Part shown: piece by piece, positions 38,595 through 46,517 of the stretch
Position numbering within the stretch: the first letter of the stretch is position 1
How the letters are laid out: each line of letters opens with the position of its first letter
IMG/VR virus record: IMGVR_UViG_3300007609_001205
Location: 104,834-151,869 of that record
DNA length: 47,036 nucleotides
Origin: a virus
Taxonomy: Duplodnaviria; Heunggongvirae; Uroviricota; Caudoviricetes
Reading direction: 5' to 3' (one strand)
The notes under the pieces: generated by a model
The model's database searches: none
Seen by the model: only the letters and a program-made list of their open reading frames with translations
What the model was told of the DNA's origin: nothing
Position numbers and translations under genes: made by a program

Positions 38595-38702
38595 ATGAAT
38601 ACATTAGTATCTAATATCAAGAATGGAAAATGCTTTAAATGGCATTTTAAATCATACCTATCCGGTTTTGATAATAGGATTACTATGTATGACTTTCTAT
38701 GA
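38595..38702 (+). CDS. attenuator leader peptide 1 (35 aa, MNTLVSNIKNGKCFKWHFKSYLSGFDNRITMYDFL)
   Basis: Read manually; consecutive TTT AAA TGG CAT TTT AAA at 38634-38651. Confidence 0.75.
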   Translation: MNTLVSNIKNGKCFKWHFKSYLSGFDNRITMYDFL

Positions 38703-38742
38703 TAAGATAGAATAACACACAAAGGTAATTTCAAAGCCGGAT
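38660..38742 (+). promoter_or_regulatory. antiterminator helix
   Basis: ATCCGGTTTTGA (38660-38671) pairs 12/12 (one G-U) with TCAAAGCCGGAT (38731-38742), which overlaps the terminator 5' arm. Confidence 0.75.
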
Positions 38743-38766
38743 TTCGAAAGAGATCCGGCTTTTTTT
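38733..38766 (+). terminator. intrinsic terminator directly upstream of the tRNA array
   Basis: AAAGCCGGATTTC-GAAA-GAGATCCGGCTTT plus T-run. Confidence 0.9.
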
Positions 38767-38775
38767 ATTTTACAT

Positions 38776-39669: not shown

Positions 39670-40617
39670 ATGGAATATTATGAAGAAATACAAAAATACT
39701 ATGATGATGGACATACAATTGCGGAAACATGTTTAAAATTCAATATAAGTGAGAGTAAAGCATATCGGGCATCAAAAAGAGGACAACTAAAATTTAGAAG
39801 TCTGAGTGAAGCGATGAAAATATCATGTAAAAAGAAACCTAGAAAGCATACAGATGAAACAAAAGAAAAACTAAGTAAGATACGTAAAGAATATCTTCGA
39901 AAAAATCCAAATAAAGTCCCATACCTATTAAACCACAGTAGTAAAGGATCGTATCCGGAAAAATACTTTACTGAGGTATTTAAAAGGGAAGGATTAGATG
40001 TTGTTAAAAAATTTAGAGTTTCTTTATATGAACTTGACTTTTCTATACCACATAAAAAGATAGATATTGAAATAGATGGGAATCAACATTATGATGATAT
40101 TAAAATAGTTGAAAGTGATATTAGGAGAAATGAATTTCTCGAAACAGAAGGATGGGATGTAATACGTATAAATTGGTCAAACTATCAAAAATTAAATTAT
40201 AAAGAGAAAAATATGTTCATAAATGACCTCAAATCTTATGTAAATAATTTAAGTGAAATCAAACCAACCATAACCACTAAACCAAGTATGAGAGGAAAAA
40301 ATTTATGTGAATGTGGTGGATTAAAAACAAAAAAATCTAAACTATGTAAAATATGTAGGCACGAAAACTCTAAAAAAAGAGATATTAAATCTTATAAATC
40401 AGAACGTAGAAAAAAATATAAATGCAATTCTTGTGGGAATAAATGTACAAATAAAAATAAACGATGTCGTAAATGTTACGAGATTGATAATAGAAAGGTT
40501 ACCGACCGACCAAGCAAAGAATCACTCATAAAAGATATTGAAAACATAGGATATTCTGCAACGGGTCGAAAGTATGGTGTTAGTGATAATACTATACGAA
40601 AATGGATTAAGAATTAA
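39670..40617 (+). mobile_element. free-standing homing endonuclease-like gene (NUMOD3-like + Vsr/DUF559 nuclease + Zn ribbons + HTH)
   Basis: KHTDETKEKLSKIRK; ELDF..IEIDGNQH..D..RNEFLE..GWDVIRI; CECG, CKIC, CNSC, CRKC; ATGRKYGVSDNTIRKW. Confidence 0.8.
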
Positions 40618-40632
40618 TTAAAATCACAAATA

Positions 40633-41832
40633 ATGGAAACACTAAATTTTAGAATTTTAAACATCAGATTGCACGGTAGGTCAGCCTTTATGGATGTTCT
40701 AACCAACGGTGAAAACTTACAGTGTTATATAAACTCACAAGTTGAAAACTTCACCGAGATAACAGAACTACCAAATGGTTCTCACCTTGGCTGTCGTGGA
40801 GAATACTTCACAACAAGAACAGGACACTACACATTCAGAATACTTGAAGCAGACATTCTGAATATTCCCAACAGACCATTACCTGTTGTTCAAAATGATG
40901 GTGAAACACTGTATAACATAACAACTGATAGAGAAGATATCCGAAGAAGAAGATATCTGAACACTATACTCAATCCAAATGAAAGAGATATATTTGTTAC
41001 TCGATCAAGACTTATCTCTTTGATAAGAAACTTCTATAATGACAATGGTTATATGGAGGTAGAAACACCTATCTTACAACCAGTATATGGTGGTGCAGAG
41101 GCAACTCCATTCACTACACATTTCGAATCACTTGATATGGATTGTTATATGAGAATTGCACCTGAATTGTATCTTAGAAGAATGATCATTGGTGGTTATG
41201 ATAGAGTTTTCGAGATAGGTAGAAATTTTCGAAATGAAGGGATTTCTTCTCGACACAATCCAGAATTCACTGTTATGGAATCATATACTGCATATGAGGA
41301 TTATAACTTCAGTATGGACATGGTTGAAAACATTCTTTTGGGAATTCATAATGAATTTGGAACCGTTACATACAATGGGAATGAAATAGATTTCTCAAAT
41401 GTATCAAGAATATCATTCGTGGAATCAATTGAAAGATACTATGGTGAAACAGAAAGCCTTTCAGATATTGAATTGAATGAGTTGTTTGAAACACACGTTG
41501 AGCCAAATTTGATACAACCAACAATGGTATATGATTACCCATCAAGTATAAGTCCATTGGCACAAGTGAGATCGGACAATGAAAACATTGCCGAAAGATT
41601 TGAACTTTTCATCTCAGGTATGGAAATTGCCAATGCCTATTCAGAACTTAACGATATAACCAGACACGTTGAGAATATTGGAGACGATGACCAAGATTTC
41701 ATTGATGCACTATCATATGGTATGCCACCAACAACCGGTATCGGTATCGGTATCGATAGATTGGTTATGATACTTACTGATAGAACAATCAGAGATGTTA
41801 TCTATTTCCCTATGATGAGAAACCGTTCCTGA
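40633..41832 (+). CDS. lysS: class II lysyl-tRNA synthetase, compact and lysine-free
   Basis: OB-fold N-terminus; EVETPIL, GGAEATPF, RIAPELYL, FRNEG..HNPEF, E.ANAYSELND, YGMPP..GIGIDRLVM. Confidence 0.95.
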   Translation: METLNFRILNIRLHGRSAFMDVLTNGENLQCYINSQVENFTEITELPNGSHLGCRGEYFTTRTGHYTFRILEADILNIPNRPLPVVQNDGETLYNITTDREDIRRRRYLNTILNPNERDIFVTRSRLISLIRNFYNDNGYMEVETPILQPVYGGAEATPFTTHFESLDMDCYMRIAPELYLRRMIIGGYDRVFEIGRNFRNEGISSRHNPEFTVMESYTAYEDYNFSMDMVENILLGIHNEFGTVTYNGNEIDFSNVSRISFVESIERYYGETESLSDIELNELFETHVEPNLIQPTMVYDYPSSISPLAQVRSDNENIAERFELFISGMEIANAYSELNDITRHVENIGDDDQDFIDALSYGMPPTTGIGIGIDRLVMILTDRTIRDVIYFPMMRNRS

Positions 41833-45350: not shown

Positions 45351-45735
45351 ATGCCGGGAATAATATCACCACACACTAATTTAGGATAAGTGCCTTTACC
45401 TGCCACGAGAAGTTCAAATTTAATATTAGACCAAAACGGGAAATTAACCATATTGAGAAGTAATGGTTCGTCTGAACAAATAAGTGCAACTGGTGGAGTA
45501 TATGGATCTGGGCCAATTGGACCAACCAGACCTAAAAGGAGCAACTGGTTCTAACGGAATTTCCACCCTATTATATGAAATGGCATATGAAACATTCTAC
45601 AATGGATTTTCATTTTCGACATTAACACCACCATATTACAAGATAACAGGTTTTCAAACAGACGGATTCATTGGTTATCGTATTACCAACTTCTTAAACA
45701 TTTTGGTATATAAAAAACATATCATATATTTGTAA
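45351..45735 (+). pseudogene. decayed collagen-repeat (fibre-like) gene
   Basis: MPGIISPHTNLG*VPLP...GPIGPT, then frameshift into KGATGSNGISTLL... Confidence 0.5.
45702..45732 (+). promoter_or_regulatory. Bacteroidota primary-sigma promoter for the His leader/hisS
   Basis: TTTG (45702-45705) - 19 nt - TATATTTG (45725-45732). Confidence 0.75.
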
Positions 45736-45736
45736 T

Positions 45737-45781
45737 ATGAACATGAGCACACATACCCATCAAAGAACACATTATATGTGA
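45737..45781 (+). CDS. His-rich attenuator leader peptide 3 (MNMSTHTHQRTHYM)
   Basis: 3 CAT codons (45752, 45758, 45770); alternative start at 45743. Confidence 0.8.
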   Translation: MNMSTHTHQRTHYM

Positions 45782-45820
45782 TCGGGAAAGTTGTGTTAAG
45801 TATAATTAGCAAACCCGATT
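45780..45820 (+). promoter_or_regulatory. antiterminator helix overlapping the leader stop
   Basis: GATCGGG (45780-45786) pairs with CCCGATT (45814-45820). Confidence 0.7.
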
Positions 45821-45835
45821 TATTCGGGTTTTTTT
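45811..45835 (+). terminator. intrinsic terminator upstream of hisS
   Basis: AAACCCGA-TTTAT-TCGGGTTT followed by T-run. Confidence 0.9.
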
Positions 45836-45860
45836 ATGTCCAAAAATTAAATATTAGAAA

Positions 45861-46517
45861 ATGAAAAACGAAATTAAATTAGAATCAACATACAAGGGTA
45901 CACGAATATTATGTGGGGAAATTGCAACCTATAAAAGAAAACTAATAAATGAAATGGTTGATAAAGTCACAGAGAAAGGATTCACAGAAGTAATGATACC
46001 TATAATCCAAAAACAAGACACTTTCCTTTCGAAAGTCGGTGATGAAAACCAAAAGATGATGTACTCGTTCAAAGACCGTGGGAATAGGGATCTCTGCCTT
46101 GCACCCGAATACACTGCCGTTGTTCAAAAATTGGCGAAAGAGGAATTTATATTTGGTAAAGGGAAACCTATGCCCGATGTAAAGTTATTTTACATTTCAG
46201 AATGTTTCCGAGGAGAGAACTCACAGAAAGGGAGATACCGACAATTTACACAATTTGGAGTGGAAATATTAAACCCCACAAAAGATTATTCTGACTACCT
46301 TTTGAATCTTGCAACTGAACTTATTTCTATGGTTACTCCGGATTATGAATATGATAAAGAGACAAGGAGGGGTCTTGATTATTATACCGAGGGAAAGGGG
46401 TTTGAAGTATCTTGCACTGAACTAGGGGCACAGAAACAGATATGTGGTGGTGGATCGTATGATGGTGGGATTGGATTTGCATTGGGTATTGATAGACTTA
46501 TATTAATTAAAGATTGA
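45861..46517 (+). CDS. hisS: minimal histidyl-tRNA synthetase (catalytic core only), histidine-free
   Basis: KGTR, motif 1 FTEVMIPII, LAPEYT, motif 2 FRGE..QKGRYRQFTQ, RGLDYY, GGGSYDG, motif 3 GFALGIDRL; no anticodon-binding domain. Confidence 0.88.
   Translation: MKNEIKLESTYKGTRILCGEIATYKRKLINEMVDKVTEKGFTEVMIPIIQKQDTFLSKVGDENQKMMYSFKDRGNRDLCLAPEYTAVVQKLAKEEFIFGKGKPMPDVKLFYISECFRGENSQKGRYRQFTQFGVEILNPTKDYSDYLLNLATELISMVTPDYEYDKETRRGLDYYTEGKGFEVSCTELGAQKQICGGGSYDGGIGFALGIDRLILIKD

Follow-up and report, generated by a model that had tools for sequence, protein, structure and literature searches.

The gene for a half-size synthetase of the HisRS type (mini-HisRS) in this phage DNA is likely gated by a ribosome-mediated leader-peptide attenuator that would sense charged tRNA-His, a reading that we draw from the sequence of the locus and of its relatives. 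Under such control the phage probably makes mini-HisRS only when charged tRNA-His is short. The window, i.e. the whole stretch of DNA analyzed here (47,036 nt), is the terminal 47 kb of a contig of 151,869 bp. What has been computed or read from sequence is the set of parts with its geometry and its alternative folds, the way these are conserved and covary among relatives, the excess of His codons in the leader frame and the histidine-free product, while the transcription start site, the coupling of transcription and translation in the host and the His-dependent read-through are what we infer. Decisive for the attenuator reading is the comparative evidence, namely covarying His-rich leaders, His codons kept in frame and the avoidance of histidine in the synthetase. 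The reading bears on how and when huge phages use their tRNAs and synthetases.

A preliminary description of this DNA had proposed the order promoter, leader ORF, terminator and synthetase gene. All of these elements are present, with coordinates accurate to the base, and are listed below together with the regions defined in the present analysis:

45702-45705, plus strand: TTTG, a -33-like box, read from the sequence, with a 19-nt spacer to the -7 box
45725-45732, plus strand: -7 box TATATTTG (TAnnTTTG), with the leader ATG 4 nt downstream
45733-45735, plus strand: stop codon of the upstream ORF, read from the sequence, 75 nt before the terminator
45737-45781, plus strand: leader ORF of 14 codons, MNMSTHTHQRTHYM, with ATG at 45737 and stop codon TGA at 45779-45781
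45752-45754 and 45758-45760, plus strand: CAT and CAT, the putative regulatory His codons 6 and 8, read from the sequence
45770-45772, plus strand: CAT, third His codon, read from the sequence
45756-45772, plus strand: possible region 1, a weak anti-antiterminator 5' strand, pairing with 45776-45786
45780-45786, plus strand: region 2, GATCGGG, the candidate 5' strand of the antiterminator, which shares its first two bases with the end of the stop codon
Between region 2 and the terminator, plus strand: spacer of 27 nt holding a small hairpin
45811-45835, plus strand: intrinsic terminator with arms 45811-45818 and 45824-45831 (8 bp) and a 5-nt loop (45819-45823)
45829-45835, plus strand: T-run (U-tract) of the terminator, from a sequence scan
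45861-46517, plus strand: mini-HisRS, a 218-aa histidine-free HisRS catalytic core, with its ATG about 25-29 nt past the terminator

The two His codons at 45752 and 45758 that had been named as stalling sites were confirmed by reading the sequence, and a third was found at 45770. The three codons are not consecutive, and the third lies so near to region 2 that a ribosome stalled there would partly mask it. Compared with the short-ORF background of this AT-rich contig (4.4% His), at least three His residues in 14 codons are expected with P = 0.022. The overlap of GATCGGG with the leader stop codon was likewise found as described, at 45780-45786.

The position of the promoter was given correctly in the preliminary description, whereas its type fits a Bacteroidota -33/-7 promoter better (TTTG/19 nt/TATATTTG), in which we take TTTG at 45702-45705 to be the -33 box from our knowledge of Bacteroidota sigma-A promoters. 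A sigma-70 reading of 45703-45730 was rejected, as its score is just 9/12 and comparable sites occur no less often in shuffled sequences. Within the contig, TAnnTTTG is enriched 10-20 nt before the ATGs of long ORFs (7 observed versus 1.1 expected), and many long genes start 3-8 nt after this box, for example at window positions 2620, 18960 (minus strand) and 23234. The promoter/ATG string of the leader, TATATTTGTAATATG, recurs as an identical copy before a 73-aa ORF and in near-identical form before ORFs of 202 and 364 aa, which places the leader ATG in the normal promoter/start arrangement of the phage. Leaderless or near-leaderless mRNAs thus seem to be the norm in the phage of this contig, and the arrangement implies that the leader mRNA, too, would be leaderless or nearly so. 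The same -7 box stands before the leaders of seven relatives (L092, L004, L012, L094, L112, L009 and L013). Between the terminator and the mini-HisRS ATG no TAnnTTTG box was found in any of 14 loci including the window, so that mini-HisRS would be transcribed only via read-through of the terminator.

The terminator folds with -13.8 kcal/mol (z = -4.7) and belongs to a set of only 17 strong terminators that the 152-kb contig contains. Region 2 can pair with 45814-45820, i.e. with the 5' arm of the terminator, through six Watson–Crick pairs and one G-U pair. This duplex of seven pairs has a predicted energy of -8.2 kcal/mol and exceeds dinucleotide shuffles with P = 0.029, which bears out the proposal that the strand is able to capture the terminator 5' arm. 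In the RNA left free by a stalled ribosome (45772-45823) a 7-pair antiterminator is predicted with -11.7 kcal/mol (z = -3.2). For the ribosome geometry we predicted the folds of nascent RNAs that end at the terminator loop, masking their 5' part as a ribosome would, with the mask reaching +13 nt from the A-site codon (a footprint assumed from E. coli). With the mask set for a ribosome at either of the His codons 6 and 8, the nascent RNA of the window formed the 2:3 antiterminator (4.9/~6 pairs), and with a ribosome at early His codons it was the dominant structure in such folds; with the ribosome at the stop codon it was abolished in 14/14 leaders. The proposed geometry, in which a ribosome at the stop masks the strand and a His stall frees it, therefore holds in masked folding. 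The antiterminator of the window is short, with 7 pairs compared with the 8 bp of the terminator. In the full-length RNA the terminator always beats the antiterminator at equilibrium, as is likewise the case in classical attenuators, which means that control must be kinetic. The folds further predict that an untranslated transcript would read through in the window and in most relatives. A helix between region 1 and region 2 (45756-45772/45776-45786) was seen in full-length MFE folds only and was not dominant in the nascent fold; a clear 1:2 anti-antiterminator was observed only in L092 and L097/L098, being weak in the window and absent in most other loci.

From these parts the following course of events can be proposed. 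A host-type RNA polymerase would start at TTTG/TATATTTG, 0-1 nt before the leader AUG according to the inferred start site, and a ribosome would translate the leader of 14 codons during the time in which the polymerase transcribes a further ~90 nt. When His-tRNA(His) is ample, the ribosome would arrive at UGA (45779-45781) and cover GAUCGGG (45780-45786), the hairpin at 45811-45831 would form and transcription would end at the U-tract. When His-tRNA(His) is scarce, the ribosome would stall with His codon 6 or 8 in its A site, covering the RNA to ~45765-45773, and the free GAUCGGG would capture CCCGAUU (45814-45820) ahead of the synthesis of the 3' arm, so that no terminator forms and the polymerase enters the synthetase gene.

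Taken by itself, the window is suggestive at modest chance levels (His codons P ~0.02, complementarity P ~0.03). An ordinary operon boundary, in which the hairpin ends the transcript of the upstream structural gene, the 14-codon ORF arose by chance and mini-HisRS is expressed constitutively by leak-through, would agree with this range of ~0.02-0.03, and the upstream ORF does end at 45735, leaving just 75 nt to the terminator. The contig does have mini-ORFs that stand before a terminator by chance: a Lys/Met-rich one, preceding the terminator at contig position 80043, was rejected as an attenuator since it lies inside the acidic C-terminal end of a gene but in another reading frame. As the statistics of the window are barely above chance, the case rests on the relatives.

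Three scans of the collection yielded at least 168 loci with homologues of mini-HisRS (42-74% identity) in at least 93 distinct upstream contexts; 80 of more than 380 metagenomic homologues were taken in. Among the loci listed, about 21 of the 93 distinct contexts carry the leader layout of promoter, short ORF, terminator and gene, with 19-34 nt between short ORF and terminator and 24-40 nt between terminator and gene, and these fall into six leader types. About 72 of the 93 contexts have no leader. The window leader MNMSTHTHQRTHYM is homologous to the leader MKTMTTHTHHGTH of L092, the nearest relative among the loci listed (74% identity). Further leaders in relatives read MKMKTTYKLHHHTEKSGS, MKNITNIITHHHSVHLG, MKTLNINTHFHFHFENLELGVH, MTININIFNVHHHFDRIDLGVH and MKHLHTYKIMIDWG or, given in part, MKTLNINTHFHFHF.., MTININIFNVHHHF.., MSYVSKHKHFSKFHF.. 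and MSYVSKHKHFSKFHFWF..., and the motifs HHH, HxHxH or THTHH occur among them. His is the most frequent leader residue (16.4%). Taking one leader per type, we counted 19 His in 116 codons against a background of 4.4% (P = 8.6e-7), and HHH is present in three of the six types, whereas random short ORFs contain it at a rate of 0.35-0.6%. In the leader frame we counted 37 CAY triplets, compared with 13 and 12 in the two remaining frames (P = 1.9e-5), or 19/7/8 by frame when one leader per type is used (P = 0.006). This in-frame excess argues for selection on the codons, beyond the RNA sequence alone.

In each leader a strand near the stop codon copies the terminator 3' arm and can pair with the 5' arm, and region 2 changes along with both terminator arms between leader types. 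The pairs of region 2 and 5' arm are UCGGG/CCCGA in the window and GAUUCGG/CCGAAUC, GUUCGGG/CCUGAAC, AUCUGGG/CCCAGAU and UUGACUGGG/CCUAGUCAA in relatives. We tabulated this covariation from the duplexes of individual loci, since a MAFFT alignment of the leaders (A2) left region 2 out of register across types. The pairing beats shuffled sequences (P ≤ 0.03) in seven of the eight loci tested. A layout kept in six leader types and His codons enriched in frame speak against a mere operon boundary, as do the three-way covariation of region 2 with the two terminator arms and the presence of a promoter typical of this phage right in front of the leader ATG; we consider such a boundary quite improbable.

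These observations bear in part also on a switch that is coupled to translation but senses general capacity, i.e. the arrival or speed of ribosomes, with the His codons as a by-product of region 1 constraints. Masking by a ribosome at the stop codon abolishes the antiterminator at every locus, as such a switch would have it, the type E leaders combine one His with a conserved peptide, and His codon 8 of the window lies within the possible region 1. However, the threefold enrichment of CAY in the leader frame only, the HHH runs at differing positions in three types and a regulated enzyme that is both His-specific and His-free are hard to reconcile with general sensing, which appears unlikely. 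The leader type of L001, L099, L102 and L103 has the conserved peptide M-x-x-LHTYKIxIDWG with one His only, and in these four loci and L109 a 67-codon Lys/Arg-rich ORF lies between terminator and mini-HisRS; simple His sensing is no explanation for this single-His type.

In a third scheme the leader would be an RNA switch read by a trans factor, either uncharged tRNA-His (T-box-like) or mini-HisRS itself (thrS-like). Synthetase genes are controlled by trans factors in Firmicutes and in E. coli thrS, so that there is precedent for this kind of regulation. Rfam covariance models gave no match of the leader to T-box leaders, nor to His_leader (RF00514), either at the gathering score or at E values up to 10; the best leader-type match was Trp_leader with 20 bits versus a gathering score of 41, so that neither a T-box nor any other Rfam leader lies above threshold. 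With only ~95 nt, the leader is without a tRNA-like fold or specifier architecture, and the conservation of its ATG, of an in-frame stop at region 2 and of in-frame His codons is at odds with a trans factor, which makes this scheme highly improbable. The Firmicutes T-box riboswitches are alike in logic, as uncharged tRNA leads to antitermination and thereby to more synthetase, but they bind the tRNA directly and need no translation, and the window element is far too short for one.

Among known systems the leader-peptide attenuator proposed here has its nearest precedent in the synthetase operon pheST. The preliminary description had spoken of his-operon logic; leader-peptide attenuation as such is supported, whereas the his biosynthetic operon is not the closest parallel. 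In the enterobacterial hisL, too, the speed at which the His codons of a short leader are decoded serves as the signal, and an intrinsic terminator competing with an antiterminator reads it out. The hisL leader differs by seven consecutive His codons, several hairpins and biosynthetic genes downstream, while in the window the His codons number three and are spread out (some relatives have HHH), one antiterminator strand alone is present, at the stop, and a synthetase gene follows. E. coli pheST with its leader peptide pheM and the predicted attenuators of Streptomyces trpS and leuS share with the proposed element a leader-peptide terminator/antiterminator switch before a synthetase gene, and in pheST-type attenuators, too, the regulatory codons are cognate to the synthetase and a shortage of charged tRNA raises its transcription. 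In contrast to pheST, the window element is phage-borne, has a Bacteroidota-type promoter, an apparently leaderless leader mRNA and His codons, is without a clear 1:2 hairpin and controls a half-size enzyme free of the cognate amino acid; there is no sequence relationship between the two. Classical attenuators before trpS and leuS have been predicted in Streptomyces (PMC1262725). That tRNAs and synthetases are part of the gene content of huge phages was described by Al-Shayeb 2020, without mention of attenuation (PMC7162821). Our literature searches found no paper in which a phage, or a phage synthetase gene, is described as being under leader-peptide attenuation. The type is thus the classical one, and for its setting in a virus we found no report.

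The downstream gene had been called hisS, and it is indeed of the HisRS type, though not a full hisS. HisRS has a length of ~420 aa versus 218 aa here. The protein matches Pfam tRNA-synt_His (1.9e-18) and reaches 145.5 bits with NCBIfam TIGR00442 (hisS), below the cut-off of 286.75, with the hisZ models lower still. When compared with the PDB, the family profile finds HisRS best (1qe0, 4e-34) and aligns to residues 6-140 and 242-315 of S. aureus HisRS only, so that the insertion and anticodon-binding domains are skipped. An AlphaFold model (pLDDT 70.7, pTM 0.74) retrieved E. coli HisRS first in Foldseek (1kmm, 7e-11), and the class II motifs 1-3 as well as the His-binding RGLDYY and GGG-x-YD are invariant in an alignment of 16 family members (A1). 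Mini-HisRS is therefore predicted to be a HisRS catalytic core. It runs in one frame in the window and in 168 of 170 loci with a tblastn match; L090, a gene with an internal deletion, is alone in changing frame within the gene. The second match in L006 is a separate, weak class II synthetase-like ORF (L006:1314-1691), which lies ~1.3 kb upstream of the mini-HisRS of L006 and shows 28% identity to mini-HisRS residues 22-147.

The mini-HisRS of the window contains no histidine (0 of 218 residues), for which the chance is ~0.02 per protein, the long-ORF proteome of the contig having a His content of 1.77%. Among the loci listed, histidine is absent from all 20 distinct leader-linked synthetases and from 65 of 90 distinct proteins of the family, and leaderless members have a mean of 0.28% His. 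An enzyme without histidine would still be translatable when His-tRNA(His) is scarce.

In a maximum-likelihood tree, 17 of the 20 leader-linked genes fall into one well-supported clade of 37 members, where they are interleaved with leaderless genes, and at least nine gains or losses of the leader are needed on this tree. In four loci (L093, L110, L111 and L114) genes resembling homing endonucleases stand exactly at the place of the leader, several of them with LAGLIDADG-type GDGS motifs, which suggests that the attenuator was lost there by insertion of a mobile gene. Smaller changes were observed as well: in L112:1359-1442 an A-run is one base longer, so that the leader stop lies eight codons downstream and 5 nt before the terminator, and in L013:2910-2975 the promoter and MKNRFNFNVHCSHR are kept while the hairpin has no U-tract, which makes it a decayed remnant. 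In many leaderless relatives (L011, L014, L015, L025, L105, L134 and others) mini-HisRS follows directly after tRNA genes, and the gene of the Sinorhizobium phage Phosso has a tRNA-His located 276 nt upstream; mini-HisRS thus often travels with tRNA genes.

The nearest relatives of the window are 'uncultured phage' genomes of 634-642 kb and viral contigs of IMG/VR. For phage genomes of this size class Bacteroidetes hosts have been predicted (PMC7162821), and a T9SS sorting-domain gene present in the window fits this host range. The phage of the window also encodes a tRNA-His 7 kb upstream of the mini-HisRS locus. In this part of the window a 35-codon ORF, MNTLVSNIKNGKCFKWHFKSYLSGFDNRITMYDFL, precedes a strong terminator (38733-38762; ORF and terminator within 38596-38775) that lies 14 nt before an array of tRNA-His/Phe/Lys/Trp genes. 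Positions 38660-38671 inside this ORF can form 12 bp, one of them G-U, with the 5' arm of this terminator, a duplex of -13.5 kcal/mol and the strongest among the 17 terminators of the contig, and the run F-K-W-H-F-K in the ORF matches the amino acids of the tRNA array. In its design the region 38596-38775 resembles the His leader and may be a second attenuator. Further downstream, a 399-aa class II synthetase of the LysRS type (40633-41832; Pfam tRNA-synt_2, 2e-75) is the sole long ORF in the 152-kb contig without lysine, the proteome containing 7.9% Lys, and this Lys-free LysRS parallels the His-free HisRS. A pattern search of viral contigs gave no close relatives of it. Between the tRNA-Lys genes and the LysRS gene lies a gene with an HTH and a DUF559/MTES_1575 endonuclease domain (39670-40617).

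The 35-codon F-K-W-H-F-K ORF with its 12-bp antiterminator and the lysine-free LysRS lead us to a tentative idea, which we regard as possible but somewhat less than even in its chances: the His attenuator might be one arm of a phage-wide surveillance of charged tRNAs in giant Bacteroidota phages. By means of leader peptides with cognate codons, such a circuit would sense failing host tRNAs, be it through starvation or through tRNA-cleaving defence nucleases, and respond with the matching tRNAs and with mini synthetases built without the scarce amino acid. Should the His attenuator itself be real, the phage would gauge the charging of one specific tRNA in the infected cell and top up that step of translation, and the known range of classical leader-peptide attenuation would come to include viruses, Bacteroidota-type promoters and leaderless leader mRNAs. 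What phage translation genes are for could then be tested directly with one reporter construct. In addition, the locus would offer a compact amino-acid-responsive switch of ~130 nt and points to a natural synthetase core of 210-218 aa for biochemistry.

Upstream of the leader, the region 45390-45735 encodes a collagen-like Gly-X-Y stretch (GPIGPT..., then KGATGSNG) that passes into the +1 frame at an A-run (45534-45537). A sequencing error, a pseudogene or programmed frameshifting could each account for this frame change in a fibre-like gene, the stop codon of which (45733-45735) falls within the leader promoter.
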